Part shown: in pieces, positions 1,028 through 62,733 of the stretch | Numbering within the stretch: the stretch's first letter is position 1 | Layout of the letters: each line of letters begins with the position of its first letter | DNA from: Candidatus Omnitrophota bacterium | GTDB taxonomy: Bacteria; Omnitrophota; Omnitrophia; Omnitrophales; Aquincolibacteriaceae | Assembly: GCA_022709525.1 (NCBI GenBank) | Contig: JAKLIQ010000001.1 | Span: forward strand, 3,797-67,796 | Direction of reading: 5' to 3' | DNA length: 64,000 bases | The notes under the pieces: model-generated | The model's database searches: none | The model's input: the letters and a program-made list of their open reading frames with translations, nothing else | What the model was told of the DNA's origin: nothing | Made by a program: the position numbers and the translations under genes

Positions 1028-1099
1028 AGGGACTCGTTGCTCGCGACTCGCCCCTCGTTCTTTGAAAACGAGTCCCGAGGAGCAAGTCCCGAGTCCCGG
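1028..1099. repeat. REP-like composite inverted repeat, GGGACTCG…CGAGTCCC family, copy 1
   Basis: GGGACTCGTTGCTCGCGACTCGCCCCTCG…AAAACGAGTCCCGAGGAGCAAGTCCCGAGTCCC is an imperfect palindrome in the folD-panB spacer. The same motif architecture recurs at 29046, 46975 and 52480. Confidence 0.7.
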
Positions 1100-4768: not shown

Positions 4769-5596
4769 ATGAAAATGAAACGGTTTTTTGTTCTTATTCT
4801 GGTCTTTTTTCTTTTTTGCCCCGCCGCTTCCCGCGGCGAAGTTTCTCCGCTTGAGATCGAAGCATTTCCGGATCAAAGCACGGTCCAAGCCGGCACGATG
4901 TTCCTTGTCCATATGCGGGTCGTGAATCCGAGCCCGGATTCCTCCACGCAATTCTGGGCTTACAGTTGTTCCTATGAAAAACACTGGATCACGGATAACC
5001 CCGAAGTCCTGATCCAGCCGTGGACTTGCGATGAAAATTCCCTCGAGGAAGTTCCTCTTGGCCCCGGCGAGGCCTACGAAAAAGACATCATGCTCCATAT
5101 CCCCGGCAAGGATCAGACCGGGACGCTCACATTCCATCTCGGATTCAAGCGCATGAGCGAGAACGGCGATGTTGCCGAACCTCTCTGGAGCGACCCCGTG
5201 ACCATGAAAGTCATCGTTCCGGAAGAAATGAAAGAAGAGTCCTCCGGCGTTACAACGGTTCCTCCGGAAGGAACGCAACCTCGCGTTTTTGAGGACTCAA
5301 GCGTTTCCATTCAGGTGCGGGTCGGGGAGGAGTTTTCGATTTCGCTCACCAGCAATCCTTCGACGGGTTATTCCTGGCGGATGACCTTGCCGGAAAATGA
5401 CACAACGGTCAGATCGCTCGGCTCCGAATTTTCCTCGGCTCAAACCGACAGAGTGGGGGCGCCTGGGAAAGAGATCTTCAAGTTCAAGGCCTTGAACCCG
5501 GGCGAGACCAAAGCCGATTTTATTTACCGGCGGTCCTGGGAAGCCGAGACGGACCCGCCCCGGGAAACTTTTACCATCATTGTTTCCGACAATTAA
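4769..5596 (+). CDS. secreted protein with a C-terminal chagasin-like (I42) peptidase-inhibitor domain
   Basis: Signal peptide MKMKRFFVLILVFFLFCPAASRG. The C-terminal domain carries NPSTGYSWR, the hallmark NPTTGY(S/R)W motif of the chagasin family. Confidence 0.6.
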   Translation: MKMKRFFVLILVFFLFCPAASRGEVSPLEIEAFPDQSTVQAGTMFLVHMRVVNPSPDSSTQFWAYSCSYEKHWITDNPEVLIQPWTCDENSLEEVPLGPGEAYEKDIMLHIPGKDQTGTLTFHLGFKRMSENGDVAEPLWSDPVTMKVIVPEEMKEESSGVTTVPPEGTQPRVFEDSSVSIQVRVGEEFSISLTSNPSTGYSWRMTLPENDTTVRSLGSEFSSAQTDRVGAPGKEIFKFKALNPGETKADFIYRRSWEAETDPPRETFTIIVSDN

Positions 5597-21063: not shown

Positions 21064-21104
21064 GGAGTTTTTGCTGTAGTCTGTCGTCTGTGGTCTGAAG
21101 TCTG
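21064..21104. repeat. CAGACNA heptamer-repeat element (reverse orientation) plus a hairpin; bidirectional terminator between convergent genes
   Basis: The reverse complement reads CAGACTTCAGACCACAGACGACAGACTACAGCAAAAACTCC, closely matching the element inside gatB at about 51300. Confidence 0.6.
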
Positions 21105-22184
21105 TCAGGCGAAGTCACTGAGCCTGACGGGCAGACGTTTCGAACCCCAGTTTCCCGGCTTGTCCTCAAAAACGCCGATACAAATAGCCCCGCAAAACTT
21201 GCAAACGATTTTTTCTTTTAGATTCCATTCCGCGATCTCAAACCCGTTCCGCGCGATCAGTTTTTTACCGCACGCATGGCAAAAAGTCGCTTCTCCCTCG
21301 GGGTTTTCTACGTTGCCGGTATAACAGTAAAGAATCCCGTTTTGAAGGGCGATCTCGCGAGCTTTCAGGAGCGTTGAGACCGGAGTCGGGGAAAGCTCCG
21401 TGAGTTTGTAAGCGGGATGAAATGCTGAGAAATGAAGCGGGACATCGGTTCCGAGGTTTTTCACGATCCAAGAAGTCAGGTCCCGCAATTCCTTTTCCGA
21501 GTCGTTAAGTCCCGGGATAAGGAGCGTCGTGATCTCAAGCCAGACAGGAGTCTCTTTTTTGATATAGATCAACGTTTCAAGGACCGGCCGAAGAGAGCTG
21601 TCCGTGTATTTTTTATAAAATTCCTCCGTAAAGCCTTTCAGGTCCACGTTGGCCGCATCTATTGTCTCATAAAATTCCTTGCGGGGTTCCGGGCAGACAT
21701 AGCCGGCCGTTACCGCCACGGTCTTGATCCCGAGCTTGTGACATGCTTTAGCCGTATCGACGGCGTATTCATGAAAGATCGCGGGCTCGTTATAGGTAAA
21801 AGCCACGCTGCGGCAACCGAGGGTTTTTGCGGTCTTGGCGATGAGTTCCGGGGAGGCGGCGTCGGCGAGCGTATCCATTTCACGGGAATGGCTGATGTCG
21901 GCGTTCTGGCAGAATTTACAGCCGAGATTACACCCGGCGGTCCCGAAAGAAAGGACCGGTGTGCCGGGAAGAAAATGAAAGAGAGGTTTTTTCTCGATCG
22001 GATCCACGCAAAAGCCGCTCGATCGGCCGTAGGTGGTGAGCACTATTTGGCCCTTTTCGCACGCCCGGACAAAACAATACCCGCGCTGTCCTTCCGCGAG
22101 TTTGCAATGCCGCGGACAAGCGTTGCACTGAACGCGGCCGTCCTTCAGTTTTTCCCAGTAGTTTGTCGGAACAACGGATCCCAT
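21105..22184 (-). CDS. amrS: AmmeMemoRadiSam system radical SAM enzyme
   Basis: …QCNACPRHC…GYCFVR…DPIEKKPLFHFLPGT…GTAGCNLGCKFCQNADIS… is the characteristic AmrS N-terminus with a CxxxCxxC cluster. Confidence 0.75.
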   Translation of the reverse strand: MGSVVPTNYWEKLKDGRVQCNACPRHCKLAEGQRGYCFVRACEKGQIVLTTYGRSSGFCVDPIEKKPLFHFLPGTPVLSFGTAGCNLGCKFCQNADISHSREMDTLADAASPELIAKTAKTLGCRSVAFTYNEPAIFHEYAVDTAKACHKLGIKTVAVTAGYVCPEPRKEFYETIDAANVDLKGFTEEFYKKYTDSSLRPVLETLIYIKKETPVWLEITTLLIPGLNDSEKELRDLTSWIVKNLGTDVPLHFSAFHPAYKLTELSPTPVSTLLKAREIALQNGILYCYTGNVENPEGEATFCHACGKKLIARNGFEIAEWNLKEKIVCKFCGAICIGVFEDKPGNWGSKRLPVRLSDFA

Positions 22185-29130: not shown

Positions 29131-31179
29131 ATGGCGCACACCTACCGTAACAGGCCCAAGAAATACCGTAAAAAAGTTCATACGCCTCTGCCTCCCAGGA
29201 TCGAGAAGAAAGAAGAGCGCCGGATCTGGGTCGGCGATGAAGCGGTCATCGAGAAGCATTTTTTGAATCTGACGCGCCTTTTGCGCGACGAAGAGCGGGA
29301 AGAGCAGAACCGTTTTAAAGAGGATTTCCTGGACCGGAAACCCGACGAACGGGAAAAAAAGGGAAAAGCGCTCTACCGCCTTGAACTTCAGGAGATCCAT
29401 TACAATCCTTCCGGGCAAAAACTTTTAACTTTCTCATTCCAAAACGGCAGGCCGCTGCCCCGCTATTCATTAATAGCCGGCGACGTTGTGTCGCTTTCGG
29501 GTTTCCAGACGCCGCCCGGGGAATGTCCCGTCGGCACTGTTTATGAGAAGGACCGTTTCCGCATCACGGTCGCTTTTGGCGGCAGGATCCCCGGATGGGT
29601 CGAACAGGAAAAAAGTTTTCAGCTGGGTATCGCCGAGAACCGCACGACTTACCAGCGTATGTACGAAGCGCTTCAGTTGACGCGCGCGGCGGACCATTCG
29701 CGTCTCGCGCTTCTCAGGGATATCAGCCTTGGCCTTAAAAAACCGCGCCTGGGCGATCCTGTCCCCGCCAAGGAACTCAGCGATCTTGATCCCGCGCTGA
29801 ACAGCGACCAGAAAAAAGCGGTCACGATGGCGCTTGAAATTCAAGATATCGTCCTCATCCACGGGCCTCCGGGAACGGGAAAAACGCGCGTTTTGACCGA
29901 GATCATCCGCCAGGCGGTCAAAAGAAATGAAACCGTCCTCGTCTCTGCTCCGAGCAATGCCGCGTGCGATCACATGGTGGAATGTCTCGCTGAAAAAAAG
30001 ATACCCGTCACGCGCCTGGGACATCCGGCGCGCGTCACCGAACGGATCCGCGAGCACACCTTAAGCTACAAACTTGCCGCGCACCCTTATGCCAAGATGA
30101 TCGATTCCCATGAAGCGCAGCTCGAGCAGTTTGCCCGGCAAAAGGAAAGAAGGCAGGAGCGCCGCGTCATGTCCTGGGAAGAGCGCAACGCCATGCGTGA
30201 AGAGGTCCACCGGTTGCGCGAAGATATCCGGGATCTCAAGGCTCAGATCTTCAAACAGGTTTGGAACGCCTCCGATGTGGTCGTTGCCACGCATACTGTT
30301 TGTGGCGATCCGCTGATCCAGGCCAAATCCTTCGATTGGGTGATCCTGGATGAGGCGACACAGGGGATCGAGCCGGCGACCTGGATCCCGATCCGTCATG
30401 GCGGTAAAGTTGTCTTGGCGGGAGACCACTGTCAGCTTCCGCCGACCGTATTACGTCCACGCCCCGGCGGGCATGACCTGAGTTTTACGCTTTTTGAGCG
30501 GCTGCATGAGATCCTGGGCCCGGAATTCAAGGTCCGGCTGGAGAAACAATATAGAATGCACGAGCATATTATGGATTTTTCATCGCGCGAGTTTTACGAA
30601 GGCGCGCTCGCGGCCGATCCCTCCGTTGCAGGGCACACGCTTCTGGATTTTAAGGCCGTCAAAAGAGAAGGGCTCGACGACGCGCCGGTGATCTTTCTTG
30701 ATACCGCCGGACTCGGCTATGAAGAAGAAGTCGAAGAAGGGACTGAAAGCCGCTATAATCCTCAGGAAGCAAAACTTGTGGTCGCCGAGCTTAACCGATT
30801 GGTCAAAGCGGGGATAACGCCCGAAGATATCGCGATCATCAGCCCCTACAGCGCCCAAGTGAAGCTTTTGACAAGCATGATCCTGGGGGACAAAGGGGAG
30901 CCGGCGGTTTTGGCCGCGCTTGAGATCGATAGCGTGGACGCATTTCAAGGCAGGGAAAAAGAGGCGGTGATCGTTTCGCTCGTGCGTTCTAACCGGGAAG
31001 GCCAGCTTGGTTTTTTGACCGATACGCGGCGCATGAATGTCGCGATGACACGGGCCAAACGTAAGCTCATCATGGTGGGCGACAGCGCGACACTTTCAAA
31101 CGACAAATTTTACGAAGATCTGCTGCGTTATATCGAATCAATAAACGGTTACCGCAGCGCGTGGGAAAATAAAAGCTAG
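29131..31179 (+). CDS. superfamily-1 Upf1/DNA2-like helicase (AAA_11/AAA_12)
   Basis: Walker A LIHGPPGTGKT; DEATQ box ILDEATQ; C-terminal motifs …VDAFQGREKEAVIVSLVRSN…. Confidence 0.75.
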   Translation: MAHTYRNRPKKYRKKVHTPLPPRIEKKEERRIWVGDEAVIEKHFLNLTRLLRDEEREEQNRFKEDFLDRKPDEREKKGKALYRLELQEIHYNPSGQKLLTFSFQNGRPLPRYSLIAGDVVSLSGFQTPPGECPVGTVYEKDRFRITVAFGGRIPGWVEQEKSFQLGIAENRTTYQRMYEALQLTRAADHSRLALLRDISLGLKKPRLGDPVPAKELSDLDPALNSDQKKAVTMALEIQDIVLIHGPPGTGKTRVLTEIIRQAVKRNETVLVSAPSNAACDHMVECLAEKKIPVTRLGHPARVTERIREHTLSYKLAAHPYAKMIDSHEAQLEQFARQKERRQERRVMSWEERNAMREEVHRLREDIRDLKAQIFKQVWNASDVVVATHTVCGDPLIQAKSFDWVILDEATQGIEPATWIPIRHGGKVVLAGDHCQLPPTVLRPRPGGHDLSFTLFERLHEILGPEFKVRLEKQYRMHEHIMDFSSREFYEGALAADPSVAGHTLLDFKAVKREGLDDAPVIFLDTAGLGYEEEVEEGTESRYNPQEAKLVVAELNRLVKAGITPEDIAIISPYSAQVKLLTSMILGDKGEPAVLAALEIDSVDAFQGREKEAVIVSLVRSNREGQLGFLTDTRRMNVAMTRAKRKLIMVGDSATLSNDKFYEDLLRYIESINGYRSAWENKS

Positions 31180-31180
31180 A

Positions 31181-31250
31181 AGTCAGAAGCCAGAGGACGG
31201 CAAACGAAGTTTTTATTCTGTTTTCTGATCTCTGTCCTCTGTTTTCTGTT
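31181..31250. terminator. hairpin / terminator-like element built from inverted CAGAnnA-type repeats
   Basis: GTCAGAAGCCAGAGGACGG…T-rich…CTGATCTCTGTCCTCTGTTTTCTG after the helicase stop. Confidence 0.5.
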
Positions 31251-31272
31251 TAAATCGCAAAGGAGGTTTCAG

Positions 31273-46700: not shown

Positions 46701-46974
46701 GCGGAATTCCATTATCCTTGTGGATTTTATCAAGCTCCGGCGCGCGGAAGGAATGCCGCTTGAAGAGGCCGTCGTCGACGCGGGCGCGAAGCGTTTCCGG
46801 CCGATGCTTTTGACAGCCGCCGCGGTAGTGGTCGGCGCTTCGGTGATCCTCTTTGACCCGATCTTTCAGGGCCTTGCCGTGGCGCTCATGGCGGGAGAGA
46901 TCGCTTCGACCATTCTTTCGCGAACGGCCGTTCCGGTGTTCTATTATATGATGGCTAAAAAAACGAGGGACTAG
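43756..46974 (+). CDS. RND-family efflux transporter permease (AcrB/CzcA-like)
   Basis: 1072 aa, 12 TM, with two large periplasmic loops. Conserved …FSIGILVDDPIV… and …GIVVRNSIILVDF…. Confidence 0.85.
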   Translation: MTSHHSDIISGIVSYFAKSKITPLVIAVSLIIGVFAVINLPREEEPQISVPMFDIFVSYPGADSKEVEQRIVTLGERKLWEIPGVEYIYSTIEPEGALIIVRFKVGEDVEKSLIKLYTKVYSNLDFLPKDASQPLIKIRSIDDVPILTLTFYGKDKNAVALRKTVANIQNIVNAIPDVSDTSITGGRKRQFQVFFDEEKLKARLLNPLEVAEIIRSANIKQNAGHLESAPELESVEANSFFKTKTDLENLVVGVSAGSVVTLKDIAKVIDGPDEEERMTEIFFGPASKTKDKGPFEAVTLSISKRKGANAAHLSEVILHTIRELPEATLPKHIEMTVTRDYGETAKEKSDELLFHMAIAVFGVSVLIAWALGLRESGVVGIAIPMTLALTLATFYFLGFTLNRITLFALIFSIGILVDDPIVDVENIVRHLRLPGNKGKSILDITIEAVNEVRSPLILATLTVIAAILPMAFVRGLMGPYMRPIPIGASAAMMFSMFVAFVATPWAAYQILGRAFAQGKLKAHHEGEKEDFLTRLYRSYMNPLIYNKKVRKAFLIGLGALLGLSVLLVPLKLVRVKMLPFDNKNEFQVILNMPDGTPVEKTKKAITEIAGYLATVPEVKDIELYAGSPAPYNFNGLVRHYFLRTKPYQADLQVNLTGKHHRKRQSHDIAKAVRPKIHEIVKKYGGHVQVAEVPPGPPVLSTLVLEIYGPSRDGQAELNKAIEGLLASSEGVTDIDTYLQAPEKLARLHINTEKASLNGIPASQISAAITAALDGKVVDLAHLSEEYEPVEILLRLPKEKRAALDNVLNMTLLSRYGNPIPVRELVNVEKDTKDPAIYHKNLMRVSYVIADVAGRYESPVYAILKLKKEIAKMPAPPNHEGQKTLDQIFTRQPATTDRWTVKWDGEWQITYEVFRDLGIAFAFVLLLIYALVVGWFQSFKTPWIIMLPIPLTLIGILPAHWLGGVFFTATSMIGMIAGAGIVVRNSIILVDFIKLRRAEGMPLEEAVVDAGAKRFRPMLLTAAAVVVGASVILFDPIFQGLAVALMAGEIASTILSRTAVPVFYYMMAKKTRD

Positions 46975-47033
46975 GGACTCGCTCCTCGTCAAGGGCTTTT
47001 ACGAGTCCCGAGGGACAAGTCCCGAGTCCCGCT
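46975..47033. repeat. REP-like GGGACTCG inverted-repeat element, copy 3
   Basis: GGGACTAGGGACTCGCTCCTCG…ACGAGTCCCGAGGGACAAGTCCCGAGTCCC immediately after the RND gene stop. Confidence 0.7.
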
Positions 47034-47051: not shown

Positions 47052-47255
47052 ATGACTATCGAAAAATATATCCGCGTCATCGCCGGCAGTTTTATTTTGA
47101 TCAGCCTCGCGCTAGCGATCTGGGTCAGCCCCTGGTGGCTCATCTGGACCGCGCTCGTCGGCGTCAATCTGATCCAATCTGCATTTACGAACTGGTGTCT
47201 TGCCGAGACTATCCTGAAAAAATTCGGCATGAAATCCTGCTGCGAACCAAAATAA
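47052..47255 (+). CDS. DUF2892 (YgaP-like) small membrane protein
   Basis: …RVIAGSFILISLALAIWVSPWWLIWTALVGVNLIQSAFTNWC… is the typical DUF2892 pattern. Confidence 0.6.
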   Translation: MTIEKYIRVIAGSFILISLALAIWVSPWWLIWTALVGVNLIQSAFTNWCLAETILKKFGMKSCCEPK

Positions 47256-47353
47256 TTCGCTGATTCAAGAGGCGGCTCCGCGCAGTGGCTCGCCCCTTTG
47301 ATTGACACTCCCTCCGCCTTCGGGCAGAATGTCTCTTCAACTAGAGGAATCCT

Positions 47354-47638
47354 ATGGAATTTGATATCAAGAAAGTCGCGGAACTCGCCCGCCTGAACCT
47401 GAAGCCCGAAGAGCAGGCCAAACTTGAAAAAGACCTCAGCGCGATCCTCGATTATGTGAAAAAACTCGAGAAACTCGACACCTCCAAGGTCGAGCCCACA
47501 AGCCATGTCCTCGATATGGAGAATGTCTTCCGCGCGGACGAGGTAAAGCCTTCGGACGCCGCCGATAAAGCCCTCAAGCACGCCCCGCAGGCGGACGGCC
47601 GTTTCTTCAAAGTTCCAAAAATTGTGCAGCGAGACTGA
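47354..47638 (+). CDS. gatC: Asp/Glu-tRNA amidotransferase subunit C
   Basis: …[12 protein letters not shown]…L..IL.YV..L…DTS.VEPT. Confidence 0.85.
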
Positions 47639-47639
47639 T

Positions 47640-49061
47640 ATGGCAGACCTCTGCTCTCTTACTTTAAAGGAAGCCATCGAAGCCGCGAAAAAAGACGGCC
47701 CGGGTCCCCTGATCGACGCGTTCGCCAAAAGGGCGCAGGCCGTTAATCCCAAACTGAACGCGTTCCTGCGTTTTGATCCCTCAAAAATTGAAAATGGAAA
47801 AGGCGCGCCGCTTTATGGCGTCCCCATTTCCATCAAGGACAATATCTGTATCGACGGCAGGGAAGTGACCTGCGCCTCAAAGATCCTTGAAAAGCACGTG
47901 CCGCCCTATAACGCGACCGTGATCGAGAAATTAAAAACGGCCGGCGCCACGCTTTTCAGCCAGTGCAATATGGACGAGTTCGCGTTCGGCTCCTCCTGCG
48001 AAACGTCCGCGTTCGGGCCGTGTAAAAATCCGTGGGACCTGATGCGCGTGCCGGGTGGCTCAAGCGGCGGCTCCGCGGCCTCGGTCGCGGCAGACATGAC
48101 GGTCGCGGCGCTCGGGTCCGACACCGGAGGTTCGATCCGCCAGCCCGCGGCGCTTTGCGGCGTGGTCGGCGTCAAACCCACTTACGGCCGCGTGTCGCGT
48201 TACGGCCTCATCGCGTTCGGCTCCAGTTTTGATCAGATCGGACCGTTCGCCAAGACCGTGGAAGACGCGGCGATCCTGATGAATATCATCTCGGGCCATG
48301 ATCCCAAGGATTCCACCTCATCGCCCGAAAAGATGCCGGACCTGACGCAGGCGCTCAAGCGCGACGTAAAGGGTCTCAAGATCGGCCTCCCGAAGGAATA
48401 TTTCATCGAGGGGATCGACCCGGAAGTCGAAAAAAGCGTGCGCGCCGCAGCGGAGATCTATAAAAAGCTCGGCGCTGAGATCAAACAGGTCTCATTGCCG
48501 CATACCGAGCACTCGGTCGCGGTCTACTATATAGTAGCCGTCGCGGAGGCGAGCTCGAACCTCGGCCGCTTTGACGGCGTCGAATACGGACTTCGCGTGC
48601 CCACTAAAGACCTGCGGGAAATGTATTTTGAGACGCGCGACCGGGGATTCGGCCGGGAAGCCAAGCGCCGCATCCTGCTCGGCACGTTCGTCCTCTCGGC
48701 CGGATATTATGAGGCTTACTATTTAAAAGGACAGAAAGTCCGCACGCTCATCCGCCAGGATTTTGAAAAGGCGTTCAAGGAAGTCGATGTGATCCTTTCG
48801 CCCACATCACCCACGCCGGCCTTTAAGATCGGTGAAAAAGCCGCGGATCCGATCGCCATGTACTTGTCCGATATTTTCACGATCCCCGCCAATTTGGCGG
48901 GCATCCCCGCGATGTCCGTTCCGTGCGGATTCACAAGCGGCGGACTTCCGATCGGCCTCCAGCTCATGGCGCGCCCCTTTGATGAAGCCACCATGCTTCG
49001 CGCGGCCTATAGTTTTGAGCAGGAAACCGGCATCTACAAAAAGAAACCGAAGTTAGACTAG
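47640..49061 (+). CDS. gatA: Asp/Glu-tRNA amidotransferase subunit A
   Basis: Amidase signature …[13 protein letters not shown]…[13 protein letters not shown]…. The start at 47640 overlaps the gatC stop. Confidence 0.9.
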
Positions 49062-49086
49062 AGACAAGAGACCTGAGACTGAAGCC

Positions 49087-49302
49087 ATGACGAATAACTT
49101 GCATCACGCCGCCAAAAAATATGTGGAAGTGATCGAGAAGATCGAAAAAACAACCGATCCTAAGGCATTGCAGGCGCTAGAAGAAAAACGGATCGATCTT
49201 CACTGGAAATTCATCGACCTGCTCAAGAAGCAGGGGATCAAGTATAAAGACAGGGACCACGCGACCCGGATCGCCATACGGATCGCACACGGTGAATTAT
49301 GA
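49087..49302 (+). CDS. hypothetical small protein (inside the gatCA|gatB insertion)
   Basis: 71 aa, helical, charged. ATGA coupling to the next ORF. Confidence 0.4.
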   Translation: MTNNLHHAAKKYVEVIEKIEKTTDPKALQALEEKRIDLHWKFIDLLKKQGIKYKDRDHATRIAIRIAHGEL

Positions 49303-49532
49303 CAGTTCTTGAGATCGCGAAGATTTATACGGACTTGGTCAAGGCGGAGCGGGAAATTCCCGAGGAGGAACATCAGGCCAAAGAAAAGATCAATGCCCTC
49401 CGGACCAAATATCACGAGATGCTGATGGCGAAAATGCGCGAAGAAAAAGTCGATTTTTCAGACCGTTTTGATGCCGCCGCCAAGGCTTTTGATCTTGTTC
49501 GCGAAGAAGAAGCAAAATATGGCGAGAAATAA
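49299..49532 (+). CDS. hypothetical small protein (inside the gatCA|gatB insertion)
   Basis: 77 aa, coiled-coil-like; translationally coupled to the upstream ORF. Confidence 0.4.
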   Translation: MTVLEIAKIYTDLVKAEREIPEEEHQAKEKINALRTKYHEMLMAKMREEKVDFSDRFDAAAKAFDLVREEEAKYGEK

Positions 49533-49594
49533 GCAAACCATTTCAACTAGCGCAGTTGAAATCGGTTGCGTTTTTAAAATGGGAAATAGAGGTT

Positions 49595-50008
49595 ATGGCC
49601 GAACGTAAAAATTTTCATCTGCTTTTTTGGGTCCTGCTGCCGGTCCTTATTCTGATCGCGGGGGTCCCGTTCTACACGGCGCATGCGTGGGATCTTAAGA
49701 ATATCGCGGCGGCTACGGGCCTCAGCGCGTTCTGCGCTTTGCTGGCACTTACGGTCTATGACGCTAAAAAATTCTCGTGGGCCGCGCGCGGCATGGCTTT
49801 TTTGGTGTTTCTACTCTTCGCGTTTTATCTGGGCAGCCAGGTCCTCCGGGGGATCGGGGCCCACACATGGTATCCGGAAGGGACAAGATCAACAGTCTCC
49901 GTTCCGAACGCCATCAAAGGATTCCTCGTTTTTGGTTTGCCATGTTTGATATACACCATTTTTGGAAACACTCTATTCAGCAAATGGGGTCATAAAAATA
50001 AAGTTTGA
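49595..50008 (+). CDS. hypothetical membrane protein (inside the insertion)
   Basis: Start MAERKNF behind GAGG; four predicted TM helices. Confidence 0.45.
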   Translation: MAERKNFHLLFWVLLPVLILIAGVPFYTAHAWDLKNIAAATGLSAFCALLALTVYDAKKFSWAARGMAFLVFLLFAFYLGSQVLRGIGAHTWYPEGTRSTVSVPNAIKGFLVFGLPCLIYTIFGNTLFSKWGHKNKV

Positions 50009-50080
50009 AAGAAACCGGCATCTACAAAAAGAAACCGAAATTATAAAAACAAACATAGTTTTTTAAAGTAATGTAAAAAT

Positions 50081-50929
50081 ATGATTGTATATAAATATGT
50101 TACTTCAGCTGGCGATGACATAATCAGAAATTTGAGAATTATGGTAAATAGCTCTCGAAGTTTTAATGATCCGTTCGAATTAATACCTGCCATAGAAAAT
50201 ATAACATCTGAACAGGTAAACCAGGCCGTGTTAAAAAACGATCATTATCTTCGGCATATTTATAAAATTGGGATAGCAAGTGGCAGAATTGAAAAATCTT
50301 ACGATCAGTTTAAACAAGAAAATCAAAATCCCGAAAGAAGCAAAATAGTTTCAAAAAATATGGCTCAAAATACCACTAAAAACATGCGAGCGACTGCTAA
50401 AAAAAGCCGAGAAGACGTCGACAGAGTTGCTTTGATGGCGTGTTTTTGCGGAGAAACCATTGATAATCATCATGAAATATTAATGTGGGCACATTACGCT
50501 GAAGGTTATAAGGGATTACGTATTGCCTTTGATTCAAATATGCTTAATAGTCCTTCCACGCCTTTAATAGAAATGAAATATAGCAAAGATAGATTGCGTC
50601 TCAATCCAATAGATTATTGGAAGAATGGCATCCAATCACTCAACAAATTTTACGGGGAAATGCTGACTGCTAAAAGCAGCGCATGGGCCTATGAGAATGA
50701 ATATAGATGGCTTGTGCCTGTCTCTTTGTGTAAAAAAGATGGTCGGTATTACTATGTTCCAATTGATTCGAAAGCGATTATTGGTATCGATTGTGGCGTT
50801 CAATGTTCAGAAGAACGTATTTCTTATATCAAAAAATTAGTTCAGTCCAATCTTGGGGAATCGACTTTTATTAGAAAAACTGTTATTGATGATTATGAAT
50901 ACAAACTTAAATACATCGATAGCATCTAA
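50081..50929 (+). CDS. DUF2971 family protein (low-GC, likely horizontally acquired)
   Basis: MIVYKYVTSAGDDIIRNLRI..NSSRSFNDPFE… and …MWAHYAEGYKGLRIAF…YENEYRW match the DUF2971 pattern. About 35% GC, against about 60% in the flanks. Confidence 0.6.
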   Translation: MIVYKYVTSAGDDIIRNLRIMVNSSRSFNDPFELIPAIENITSEQVNQAVLKNDHYLRHIYKIGIASGRIEKSYDQFKQENQNPERSKIVSKNMAQNTTKNMRATAKKSREDVDRVALMACFCGETIDNHHEILMWAHYAEGYKGLRIAFDSNMLNSPSTPLIEMKYSKDRLRLNPIDYWKNGIQSLNKFYGEMLTAKSSAWAYENEYRWLVPVSLCKKDGRYYYVPIDSKAIIGIDCGVQCSEERISYIKKLVQSNLGESTFIRKTVIDDYEYKLKYIDSI

Positions 50930-50972
50930 AATCTGCATTGAATAAACAGTAAAAGGAATAACAGGAAGAAAA

Positions 50973-52493
50973 ATGAACTACGAACCAGTCATTGGACTAG
51001 AAGTCCACGTACAGCTGAAGACGAAGAGCAAGATGTTCTGCGCTTGTTCCACGGAATTCGGTGTGGAAGGCAATAAGAACACATGTCCGGTGTGTCTCGG
51101 CTGGCCGGGATCGCTGCCGGTGGTGAATGAAACAGCGCTCAAGCTCGCGATCCGCGCGGGGCTAGCTCTCAATTGCAAAGTCGCAGAGCGGCTCAAGTTC
51201 GACCGGAAAAATTATTTCTATCCTGATCTTCCGAAAGCGTATCAGATCTCGCAATACGATATGCCGGTAAATGGGAAGGGGTTTGTGGATGTGGAAACCC
51301 AGACTACAGACCACAGACTACAGACCACAGCAAAAAACGAAAAAGAGCAAAGCGAAAAACAAAACTCCGAACTCCTTGCTCCTCGCTCTACGCTAAAAAG
51401 AATCGGGATCACGCGTGCGCACCTGGAAGAAGACGCCGGAAAACTTCTGCACGAGGGCATCGCGGACGGAAGCCTTGTCGATTACAACCGCGGCGGCATC
51501 CCGCTTCTTGAGATCGTCTCCGAGCCGGACCTCCGCAGCCCGCAGGAAGCGTACGATTACCTCACGGCGCTCAAGGCCATCCTTCAATATATAGAAGTGA
51601 GCGACTGCGATATGGAAAAGGGGAGTTTGCGCTGCGACGCGAACGTGTCCGTCCGGCCCGTAAGCCAGGAGAAATTCGGGACCAAGGTCGAGATCAAGAA
51701 CCTGAACTCCTTCAAGATGGTGCAGAAAGCGATCCAGTACGAGATCGAGCGGCAGACGGGGATCCTTGAAGATAAAGAAGCCGTTATCCAGGAAACGCGG
51801 CTTTGGGAGGACAAAAAAGGCGTGACGGTCTCGATGCGTTCCAAGGAAGAGGCGCACGACTACCGCTATTTTCCGGAGCCGGACCTTGTGCCGTTCACGT
51901 TGTCGCGCAAGACCGTGGAGGAGATCAAAAAGACACTGCCGGAGCTGCCCCTTGAGAGGGCGAAACGGTTCGTGAAAACCTTCGGCATTTCCGAATATGA
52001 CGCACAGGTCCTTTGTCAGGAGAAAAAACTCGCCGAATATTTTGAGGCATGCGTCAAAGAGGGCGCCGCCGCGAAATCCGCAAGCAACTGGATCCAGTCC
52101 GAGATCTTGGCCATTCTTAATGAAAAAAATTTATCCGTCGAAAATTTTCCGATCACAGCGGCAAGCACCGCAGGAACGATCCGCCTTATTGAAAAGGGAG
52201 CCATCAGCGGCAAGATCGCCAAAGAAGTTTACCGTGAAATGTTTGAGACCGGCAAAGACGCCGAAACGATCGTCAAAGAAAAAGGCCTGACGCAGGTCTC
52301 CGACACCGGTTTAATTGAAAAAGCCGTGGAAAAAGCCATCGCCGCGAACCCCGCCGCCGCCCAGGAATTCAAGGCCGGAAAACAAAAGGCCCTCGGCGCC
52401 CTGGTCGGTTTTGTGATGAAAGAGACCGCCGGCAAAGCCAATCCGAAGCTTGTTAATGAAATTCTCATTAACAAGCTCGGGACTCGTAGCTAG
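50973..52493 (+). CDS. gatB: Asp/Glu-tRNA amidotransferase subunit B (with an in-frame repeat-derived insertion)
   Basis: MNYEPVIGLEVHVQLKT.SKMFC…ISQYD…KRIGITRAHLEEDAGKL…. About 28 extra residues (TQTTDHRLQTTAKNEKEQSEKQNSELLAPRSTL) lie where B. subtilis GatB has VGGKT. Confidence 0.9.
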   Translation: MNYEPVIGLEVHVQLKTKSKMFCACSTEFGVEGNKNTCPVCLGWPGSLPVVNETALKLAIRAGLALNCKVAERLKFDRKNYFYPDLPKAYQISQYDMPVNGKGFVDVETQTTDHRLQTTAKNEKEQSEKQNSELLAPRSTLKRIGITRAHLEEDAGKLLHEGIADGSLVDYNRGGIPLLEIVSEPDLRSPQEAYDYLTALKAILQYIEVSDCDMEKGSLRCDANVSVRPVSQEKFGTKVEIKNLNSFKMVQKAIQYEIERQTGILEDKEAVIQETRLWEDKKGVTVSMRSKEEAHDYRYFPEPDLVPFTLSRKTVEEIKKTLPELPLERAKRFVKTFGISEYDAQVLCQEKKLAEYFEACVKEGAAAKSASNWIQSEILAILNEKNLSVENFPITAASTAGTIRLIEKGAISGKIAKEVYREMFETGKDAETIVKEKGLTQVSDTGLIEKAVEKAIAANPAAAQEFKAGKQKALGALVGFVMKETAGKANPKLVNEILINKLGTRS

Positions 52494-52600
52494 GGACTCG
52501 CCCCTCGTGAAGCAGATCAAGAAACATCGCTCGGACCTCGGGACTCGGGACTTACTTTTTAAAAAACGAGGAACTAGTCCCGAACAACGAGTCCCGCGAG
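52480..52600. repeat. REP-like GGGACTCG elements, tandem copy 4 (two units) overlapping the gatB stop codon
   Basis: CTCGGGACTCGTAGCTAGGGACTCGCCCCTCG…CTCGGGACTCGGGACTTAC…ACTAGTCCCGAACAACGAGTCCCGCGAGG. The gatB TAG lies inside the first unit. Confidence 0.7.
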
Positions 52601-56628: not shown

Positions 56629-56662
56629 GTTTCAGGATCCGGACGCGTTCTGAGAAGTTTAT

Positions 56663-56735
56663 TGCCCCGTGGTGAAATTGGATATCACACTGCCCTTTGG
56701 AGGCAAGGTTTCTGGTTCAAGTCCAGACGGGGCAG
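56663..56735 (+). tRNA. tRNA-Gln (anticodon UUG), no encoded CCA
   Basis: Hand-folded cloverleaf. Acceptor TGCCCCG/CGGGGCA (U1:A72, G73, as in tRNA-Gln). D-arm GTGA-AATTGGATA-TCAC. Anticodon stem CTGCC/GGCAA with one C.A mismatch. Loop CTTTGGA. T-arm TCTGG-TTCAAGT-CCAGA. Confidence 0.65.
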
Positions 56736-56824
56736 TTGCACCATTGTGCAACTACGGTGCCGTGACGGTTCAAGGATAACCGTCTACGACACTGCAGTTC
56801 AATCGCAATGTTAGAGGAAATAAG

Positions 56825-62469: not shown

Positions 62470-62733
62470 CCGTTTTTTTTGGTTTTTTATCAAACAAGAA
62501 TCAAGGCCTGTTATGCCCTTACTTCTAAAGCGGAAGATTGGCAGAGCAGGTCTTGATAACCTTGGGCCTTTTTATCAAACAAGAATCAAGGTTGCTCACG
62601 CGCGACATTTATGTTACATTGTCTCCTCTTTCAGCCGCTTTGAAGGGCTGAAAACTTCATAACTTCTTCTGTAGCTTCTGCTTACGAGACTTACGGGAAA
62701 GGTTATCGTTTAAATCCAGTATTAAGGGAGTGT

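Follow-up and report, generated by a model that had tools for sequence, protein, structure and literature searches.

Accessory genes of bacteria are found at defence hotspots flanked by core genes, in integrative and mobilizable elements (IMEs), cis-mobilizable elements (CIMEs) and islands seated in the 3′ end of a gene, and in integron cassette arrays. Here we describe the junction between gatA and gatB in 64 kb of DNA of an Omnitrophota bacterium (the whole stretch is called the window), where a direct repeat of the gatA 3′ end and a foreign gene of the DUF2971 family stand between two genes that overlap in many relatives. Loci of related genomes that were compared with the window carry L-numbers.

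The locus resembles the core-gene-flanked defence hotspots in that the same flanks hold unrelated toxin–antitoxin, abortive-infection (Abi) or defence-candidate cargo, empty and filled sites are distributed patchily, the newest cargo has an atypical GC content and the spot is without mobility genes. It differs from the usual hotspots in lying inside an essential, ancestrally overlapping operon with cargo forced into operon orientation, in its very small inserts, often of one gene, and in a relic of the upstream gene's 3′ end at the cargo border. With IMEs, CIMEs and islands in gene 3′ ends it shares the direct repeat of the target end, a reconstituted functional end, tandem relics (in L023) and empty sites, but no integrase was found in the instances examined, the repeat edges are not fixed and the foreign gene lies outside the repeat-bounded segment. 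Like integron cassette arrays, it has small, co-oriented, mostly single-gene units behind a fixed point, with read-through transcription; unlike them, it has no intI and no attC-type imperfect palindrome, and its junction is a copy of a coding 3′ end.

DUF2971 proteins are predicted DarT/AbiGi-like ADP-ribosyltransferases with the motifs H, Y and ExE (PMC12522546). The lactococcal Abi system Aristaios, which is experimentally active, is a DUF2971 protein, and it is only for this system that phage resistance by DUF2971 has been shown (PMC11381338). The gene of the window is similar to Aristaios and to the defence candidate PDC-S31 of the PADLOC collection in being a single gene, in carrying DUF2971 over most of a length of ~280-320 aa and in having homologues in defence-type neighbourhoods; the likeness is at the family level, via profile matches only, with some ten closest clusters.

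Compared with these systems, the locus works like a core-gene-flanked defence hotspot, its likeness to att-bearing islets lying only in the gene-3′-end repeat. The reading that we favour, and to which we give an even chance, is that the gatA–gatB junction is a hotspot bearing a pseudo-3′ end of gatA, founded by an old duplicative insertion and since then subject to turnover of its cargo by homologous recombination.

The gatA-End Repeat and Its Setting

Two copies of the 29-mer GAAACCGGCATCTACAAAAAGAAACCGAA, and no more, are present in the window; they lie on the + strand at 49023-49051 and at 50011-50039, and the repeat described in the initial annotation is exact at 29/29 positions. No match is expected from dinucleotide-preserving shuffles, and the window holds no further match at up to three mismatches. 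Extended without gaps, the repeat reaches 33 nt with one mismatch (32/33; 49023-49055 against 50011-50043). Copy 1 codes for the GatA C-terminus (12 residues to the gene end); copy 2 is intergenic, yet read in the gatA frame it still gives 11 residues, followed by TAA at 50044-50046. Copy 2 is indeed derived from the gatA 3′ end. The relic region is without notable secondary structure (-7.7 kcal/mol, z = -1.2), and no other gene-end duplicate was found in a window-wide repeat scan.

The order along the + strand is gatC, gatA, heptamer tract, orf71, orf77, hairpin, the open reading frame (ORF) of a protein with four transmembrane (TM) segments, copy 2, the DUF2971 gene, gatB and tsaD (Table 1); acrB and ygaP lie upstream of gatC. 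In the window gatA and gatB are ~1.9 kb apart. The content listed in the initial annotation between the two copies, a CAGACNA element, two coupled small ORFs and a four-TM protein, is all present. The AT-rich DUF2971 gene is likewise present after copy 2, with the refinement that it stands to the right of that copy and so outside the repeat-bounded segment. In the composition profile, the GC content is ~55% in the flanks, ~44-58% between the repeats and 28-40% from ~49950 to 50970.

Table 1. Features of the gatA–gatB junction in the window, and positions of gatA relics in related loci
Feature	Position	Strand	Remark
gatC	47354..47638	+	Pfam GatC, 3.8e-23
gatA, 473 aa	47640..49061	+	Pfam Amidase, 8.4e-156
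Repeat copy 1, functional gatA 3′ end	49023..49055	+	29 nt exact, 32/33 extended
Heptamer tract NNNAGAC, four or five copies	49053..49085	+	from the sequence; the "diverged CAGACNA element" of the initial annotation
orf71, small helical protein, first of the pair	49087..49302	+	no family match
orf77, three-helix protein, start overlapping the orf71 stop (ATGA)	49299..49532	+	strongly conserved, Omnitrophota-specific
Hairpin and T run after orf77, terminator-like	49527..49575	+	inverted repeat; -16 kcal/mol, z = -1.8
Four-TM protein, 137 aa, clade-restricted	49595..50008	+	five homologous clusters
Repeat copy 2, gatA relic (pseudo-3′ end), 33 nt and in-frame TAA	50011..50046	+	left border of the variable cargo slot
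AT-rich foreign segment, current occupant of the cargo slot	50047..50972	+	28-40% GC
DUF2971 protein, 282 aa, predicted ADP-ribosyltransferase-like	50081..50929	+	single-gene defence candidate
gatB, right border of the cargo slot	50973..52493	+	Pfam GatB_N 9e-121, GatB_Yqey 1.7e-52
gatA relic in L013	1930	+	
gatA relics in L023	~5036, 5194, 5276	+	
gatA relic in L110	1238	+	
gatA relic in L105	825	+	

The arrangement is found well beyond one assembly. At least ten independent samples and several assemblers yielded contigs that are 99.8% or more identical to the window, and those that span the region all hold both repeat copies, among them a 551-kb Joint Genome Institute (JGI) contig identical to the window; the gatA gene call is the same in the independent assemblies. 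An assembly artefact, either a chimeric join or a collapsed repeat, would find its only support in the contig ends of several assemblies at 49552-49882, and it is ruled out by the identical arrangement of both copies in the at least ten agreeing assemblies; we put its chance at practically nil. The contigs in question end or start in or just before the four-TM gene, three of them exactly at 49646, and this clustering suggests strain-level structural variation there. An empty-site or deletion variant of the same species was not present among the recovered contigs.

Known RNA families were not detected at the repeat or in the gap at E ≤ 1, and in a promoter and terminator scan of the locus only the hairpin after orf77 rose above shuffled expectation.

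Empty and Filled Sites in Related Genomes

For comparison, gatC, gatA, gatB and tsaD were mapped on 80 loci. The closest relatives, obtained by a GatA scan of species-representative genomes, are metagenome-assembled genomes (MAGs) of Omnitrophota with at most 89% amino-acid identity. Many Omnitrophota (L027, L032, L035, L038, L039, L040 and L048) have an empty site, in which the gatA stop overlaps the gatB start (TTATGA), and the same overlap occurs in Nitrospirota, Smithella and others. The empty-site comparison bears out the proposal that a contiguous gatCA–gatB operon has been split by an insertion. The window gatA ends in ...KKKPKL-D-stop, the ancestral form being ...L-stop overlapping the gatB ATG.

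Within the genus-level clade (GatA 81-89% identical) gatA and gatB are anywhere from 0 to more than 5 kb apart, with unrelated cargo in different genomes. Empty and filled sites are interleaved on the GatA tree, and without exception the inserted DNA of relatives separates the last gatA codon from the gatB ATG. L023 carries a MazE-like antitoxin with Fic/Doc (Pfam) behind a TTGACA-N17-TACATT promoter; apparently the same cassette stands in L028, L036 and L051, as read from translations and the shared promoter only, and on a further contig Fic adjoins the four-TM gene. Other genes found in the gap are RhuM-Fic (L021, L026), AbiJ_NTD4 (L021), Bro-N (L044), T5orf172/MUG113 (L031), HEPN_AbiU2 (L107) and DUF2806 (L110), and there is metabolic cargo as well (CDGSH, a Rieske-FMN reductase, glycosyltransferases with a radical-SAM enzyme). 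Four cargo genes of relatives match the PADLOC single-gene phage defence candidates PDC-S23, S32, S13 and S57. By eye, no plausible cargo gene runs against the operon, and minus-strand ORFs overlap better plus-strand genes; the cargo is presumably co-oriented because gatB must be transcribed through it.

The same core flanks therefore enclose unrelated cargo, and this cargo is enriched in defence and toxin–antitoxin genes. Judged by these comparisons, the gatA–gatB junction is a lineage-specific hotspot of accessory genes.

Two further observations concern the borders and the neighbourhood of the slot. A motif, CTGTCCC.AAAAGGTGACTGT, is common to cargo borders in L023 (5238-5265), L103 (790-815) and L102 (1445-1475), and its core 11-mer AAAAGGTGACT has no other occurrence in 103 loci; the motif may be a common inter-cassette sequence. 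The ygaP–gatC junction (47255-47354 in the window) is a second variable spot, being 99 bp long in the window and 1-6 kb in several relatives (L020, L024, L026, L027, L031).

Relic gatA Ends

Relics were sought in two scans, one of every locus with the gatA tail of that locus and one of 1.28 Mb of loci with a consensus 33-mer. All non-terminal copies of the gatA end that came to light lie in the gatA–gatB gap, and all are on the + strand. Their left edges lie at about -57 in L105, about -45, -31 and -28 in the three relics of L023 (r3, r1 and r2, respectively), -36 in L013 and -33 in the window and L110. A fixed att core is not evident from these variable edges, and erosion could mimic the pattern.

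L013, a strain of the window species, is 99.4% identical to the window as far as 49989 (6 mismatches), beyond which the two diverge; two other ORFs follow in L013, and after them a relic that runs rightward into GAC and heptamers. In L105 the relic comes right after the orf77 stop and comprises ~57 nt of gatA (RAAYTFEQEI*IYKKKPEL*), with 8/30 differences from its own gatA end and an in-frame stop. L110 has the same orf77–relic junction as L105, the adjoining ~24 nt being missing. To the right of the relic stand DUF2971 in the window, DUF2806 in L110, an AT-rich TM protein in L105 and a 227-aa TM protein in L023. As a different gene is found there in each genome, the relic forms the left border of the most variable slot of the locus.

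Between the relics of the window, L110 and L023 (r3) only 1-3 of 36 positions vary, and the first 26 nt are the same in all three, whereas the four-fold sites of gatA differ by 34-51% between these genomes; under a binomial model, so small a number of changes in the relics has a probability of ~1e-5 or less. Those changes that do occur are synonymous or conservative when read in the gatA frame (CCG/CCA; TTA/TTG/GTG), and a functional gatA ending in ...CCGAAATTATAA, like the window relic, is present in L018. Since the conservation of the relic exceeds that of the four-fold sites, the relic would be either refreshed from functional gatA ends or constrained.

These data bear directly on the possibility of a neutral scar, in which a one-off tandem duplication or an illegitimate recombination copied the gatA end, the relic has had no further role, and the differences in cargo are unrelated insertions and deletions confined by selection to the only permissive point between essential genes. 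The decay of the L105 relic would fit such a scar, as would the exact fit of inserts behind the last codon of gatA and before the gatB ATG, which is what selection alone demands, the lack of a relic at most insertions, and the unrelated case of L017, where 36 nt of the gatB 5′ end are duplicated. Nevertheless, a scar without a role does not lead one to expect three relics of different species to be 26/26 identical in the core, the relic to be the boundary of cargo variation in four genomes, or the existence of at least two relic generations, the TAA type and the type of L013 with GAC and heptamers. We regard a neutral scar as improbable.

The DUF2971 Gene

The current occupant of the slot scores 33 bits against the Pfam cut-off of 22 for DUF2971, and it matches PADLOC PDC-S31 (3.9e-31, residues 4-279) and phrog_1762 (1e-30). 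Its homologues form 11 clusters only, too few for a phylogeny. The best non-self homologue is 68% identical and lies beside a SocA_Panacea gene, and 44% homologues adjoin SLFN_AlbA_2, NYN and integrase genes. Homology is confined to the ORF, including in the comparison with the closest relative, L097, and neither gatA, gatB nor a relic was present near the DUF2971 homologues among the homologous loci. The alignment shows the invariant motifs NDPF, MW.HY and W.YE.E.R; the residues H138/Y139, Y167 and E205-x-E207 are invariant, and we take them to correspond to the published H, Y and ExE motifs.

The low GC content marks the gene as foreign and horizontally acquired. Its description as cargo of a mobile or defence type is borne out by this composition, by the PDC-S31 match and by the DUF2971 nature of Aristaios (PMC11381338). 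We infer a defence function: the gene of the window most likely acts as a single-gene abortive-infection defence, predicted to be of the Aristaios/PDC-S31 type.

Search for Mobility Genes and Recombination Sites

Site-specific integration, the explanation first offered for the duplicated gatA end, deserves detailed consideration. According to it, an attB would be formed by the ~33-36 nt at the very end of gatA, and the GatA C-terminus would be restored by cassettes with a matching attP; the recombinase would be encoded elsewhere or on a helper, with the gatA end as attL and the relics as attR, in a tandem arrangement of the CIME/IME kind. Several of the observations above are what such a process would produce, namely direct repeats from the 3′ end of the target gene that flank inserted genes, the tandem relics in L023, relics that are coding-like and conserved far above neutral expectation (as expected if att resupplies the GatA C-terminus), the single orientation of cargo and the precise empty sites in relatives.

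Evidence for the machinery was not obtained. No integrase, recombinase or transposase domain is present in the Pfam-scanned gap ORFs, which were the four of the window and the large ones of 15 relatives; for L029, L034 and L051 the ORFs of the gap were read as translations only. A phmmer search of limited sensitivity with two tyrosine recombinase seeds was negative in the window and in 8 kb on either side of the relatives' gatA. The search for att-like sequences elsewhere gave 0 matches in 2.9 million viral contigs, and in metagenome contigs it returned 7 loci, consisting of gatA ends and one relic, the window's own contig not being returned. Deletion of 49052-50039 would read gatA...repeat...ATTATAAAAAC, and a circle or tandem junction would read 4TM-end...repeat...GTTAGACTAGAGAC; neither junction was found among the contigs carrying exact GatA, orf77 or DUF2971 proteins.

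The geometry is not that of an integrated element either. The left edges of the relics vary from ~28 to 57 nt and the L013 relic runs right into heptamers; most filled sites (~15 species) are without any relic; and what lies between the repeats is a set of conserved lineage genes and not cargo. In particular, orf71 and orf77 are a conserved Omnitrophota pair that occurs in other operons (see below), and the notion of the repeat-bounded segment as a self-contained mobile element could not be upheld. Taken together, the absence of a recombinase from the scanned gap ORFs and the variable edges speak against reading the repeat as a footprint of site-specific integration, and we consider this explanation unlikely, although it calls for serious attention; the alternative of a repeat-mediated insertion, also named in the initial annotation, is closer to the comparative picture.

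A bolder version of the same idea is that the gatA 3′ end and the relics are the recognition site of an undescribed Omnitrophota system of cassette capture, with a recombinase encoded elsewhere. Its outcome would be integron-like, with stacked co-oriented single-gene defence cassettes and an att site taken from a coding 3′ end; in a variant, the system would be linked to the heptamer arrays or to a relocating orf71–orf77 pair and would make long duplications of the target end. We rate it a long shot.

Other classes of element were rejected. Target-site duplications of typical transposons and insertion sequences are far shorter than 33-57 nt. A transposon or insertion sequence is dismissed on account of this length and of the lack of a transposase domain and of terminal inverted repeats at the locus. 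An integron is dismissed since there is no intI next to the site and no attC palindrome; attC-like folds or inverted repeats were absent at the junctions, and the 43 nt after the DUF2971 gene fold at -1 kcal/mol. A tRNA or tmRNA as insertion target is excluded as there is none at the site, the sole tRNA being a tRNA-Gln 4 kb downstream of gatB. This tRNA-Gln(UUG), at 56662-56736, is the substrate tRNA of GatCAB. A literature search for integration at gatA and for repeats in Omnitrophota gave nothing relevant.

Proposed History of the Junction

Starting from the ancestral state, in which the gatA stop overlaps the gatB start (TTATGA), we infer a founding duplication followed by turnover through homologous recombination. 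In an ancestor of the genomes closest to the window, the heptamer tract and the orf71–orf77 pair would have come to lie behind gatA by a duplicative insertion, with at least 57 nt of the gatA 3′ end left downstream as a second copy, as L105 and L110 indicate; in the window this copy would since have been eroded to 33 nt. The relic would then separate a hypervariable slot before gatB from a conserved part made up of orf71 and orf77, joined in the window by the four-TM gene. In that slot, cargo would be swapped by homologous recombination with related strains and species, the left arm being the gatA end or the relic and the right arm gatB. The functional gatA ends of donors would repeatedly overwrite the relic, which is how its nearly unchanged state could be explained, and a recombinase of the locus's own would not be needed.

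Indirect support for homologous recombination comes from the strain breakpoint at ~49960-49990, within the last ~50 nt of the four-TM gene, and from the conservation of the relic, which together are consistent with such exchange. Related species do co-occur in samples, L105 and L001 both being from ERZ795054.

Several points weigh against this history. Homologous recombination through a 33-nt arm is inefficient, and a mosaic pattern in the gatA and gatB flanks is not demonstrable at the available resolution. A donor genome with the order gatA, DUF2971, gatB was not found, and the closest DUF2971 homologue (68%) lies in an unrelated context. The founding duplication itself is left without an explanation. 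The sample of relics is small, seven copies in five genomes, some of them of shared ancestry, and selection on the recognition site of a recombinase could account just as well for their near-identity between species.

Heptamer Tracts and the Genes between the Repeats

The heptamer tract directly behind the functional gatA end gives gatA its additional GAC codon and its TAG stop, and the same tract follows gatA in L013, L022, L023, L104, L105, L107 and L110. Tandem arrays of 7 nt are present at many gene junctions of the window (1069-1098, 21074-21105, 31173-31251, 46965-47031, 49053-49085 and 52474-52600), with a unit that varies between arrays (CGAGTCC, CTGTAGT, NNNAGAC, GGGACTN). They often come in inverted pairs that could form long hairpins, and in L017, L026, L036 and L104 they stand directly before gatB. 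Literature on such arrays was not found. An in-frame CAGACTA/CAGACCA array, detected by Tandem Repeats Finder (TRF), lies inside gatB at 51300-51330, within an insertion of ~35 aa (…TQTTDHRLQTTAKNEKEQSEK…); the GatB length of ~479-509 aa among relatives suggests that this loop tolerates repeat insertions. In L017 (5160-5310) the sole insert between gatA and gatB is an 80-nt heptamer palindrome. On its flanks 36 nt of the gatB 5′ end (MNYEPVIGLEVH) are duplicated, a counterpart of the gatA-end duplication of the window.

One could suppose on these grounds that an insertion process linked to heptamers makes long (33-57 nt) duplications of target-gene ends at junctions. The tracts do come directly after the duplicated gatA end in the window, L013, L023, L105 and L110, the L017 palindrome is flanked by such a duplication, and arrays mark many junctions of the window genome. 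Nevertheless, by eye the arrays at the acrB–ygaP and gatB–tsaD junctions have no flanking duplication, the window-wide repeat scan gave no other gene-end duplicate, the orf71–orf77 pair occurs elsewhere without target duplication, and no enzyme can be proposed for the process. It seems very improbable to us.

The two coupled genes behind the tract are of wider distribution. Homologues of orf71, 83-94% identical, lie directly after gatA in L104-L107 and L110, where the orf71–orf77 pair follows the same heptamer tract and the L-D-stop ending. For orf77, 211 homologous clusters were found at E ≤ 0.001; the 120 clusters listed of these are all at least 68% identical, and every named one is from Omnitrophota/Omnitrophica. 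An alignment of 23 members has 26 invariant columns, and the AlphaFold2 (AF2) model is a confident three-helix protein (pLDDT 94.5) for which a fold search gave no significant match in the Protein Data Bank (PDB). In distant Omnitrophota the pair stands at the sufB–sufC junction, upstream of rplU-rpmA-obg or at the folD–panB junction, and in one setting orf77 alone precedes an ATPase gene; orf71 is paired with orf77 in these other operons (L111, L115, L122). At the folD–panB junction, which holds the pair in L122, a heptamer array is present in the window, and at least one MAG carries two copies of the pair. In L005 (~4880-4980; JGI 3300025715) a 17-nt deletion truncates orf77, and this strain indicates that orf77 can be lost in natural populations despite its conservation.

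The pair as an element that itself duplicates target ends was rejected, there being no duplication at its sites in L111, L115 and L118. A type II toxin–antitoxin pair was also rejected: matches in Pfam, NCBIfam, PADLOC and PHROGs are lacking, and the genes are conserved and sit in housekeeping operons. By these comparisons orf71 and orf77 are a relocated, conserved, lineage-specific pair, neither ordinary cargo nor a recognisable toxin–antitoxin pair.

The four-TM gene is of narrow occurrence, with only 5 homologous clusters, all in the gatA–gatB gap of relatives. The hairpin between it and orf77 is similar in design to arrays of hairpins resembling repetitive extragenic palindromic (REP) sequences (GAATT..CCG....CGG..AATTGG), which stand between cargo genes in relatives (L022 3310-3450; L026 10440-10570 and 11060-11260; L028 10330-10500; L107 2080-2260). 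Elsewhere in the window there is an exact 23-nt direct repeat, TTTTTATCAAACAAGAATCAAGG, at 62484-62506 and 62569-62591 with a spacing of 85 nt.

Significance

As a hotspot of gene swapping the locus is real but fairly ordinary. What is unusual is its position in an essential overlapping operon, the single-gene cargo and the well-preserved gene-end relic at the point of exchange. The finding means that an essential, translationally overlapping operon can be a stable landing pad for fast-exchanged defence and toxin genes in an uncultured phylum. It exposes, moreover, a small-protein pair, orf71/orf77, which is conserved and unstudied, and the genome-wide heptamer arrays of the clade. The locus offers a natural test of short gene-end relics as homology arms or as recombinase sites, and it is compact and recognisable enough (gatA end, relic, one gene, gatB) to track the strain-level turnover of defence in Omnitrophota of anaerobic digesters and groundwater.

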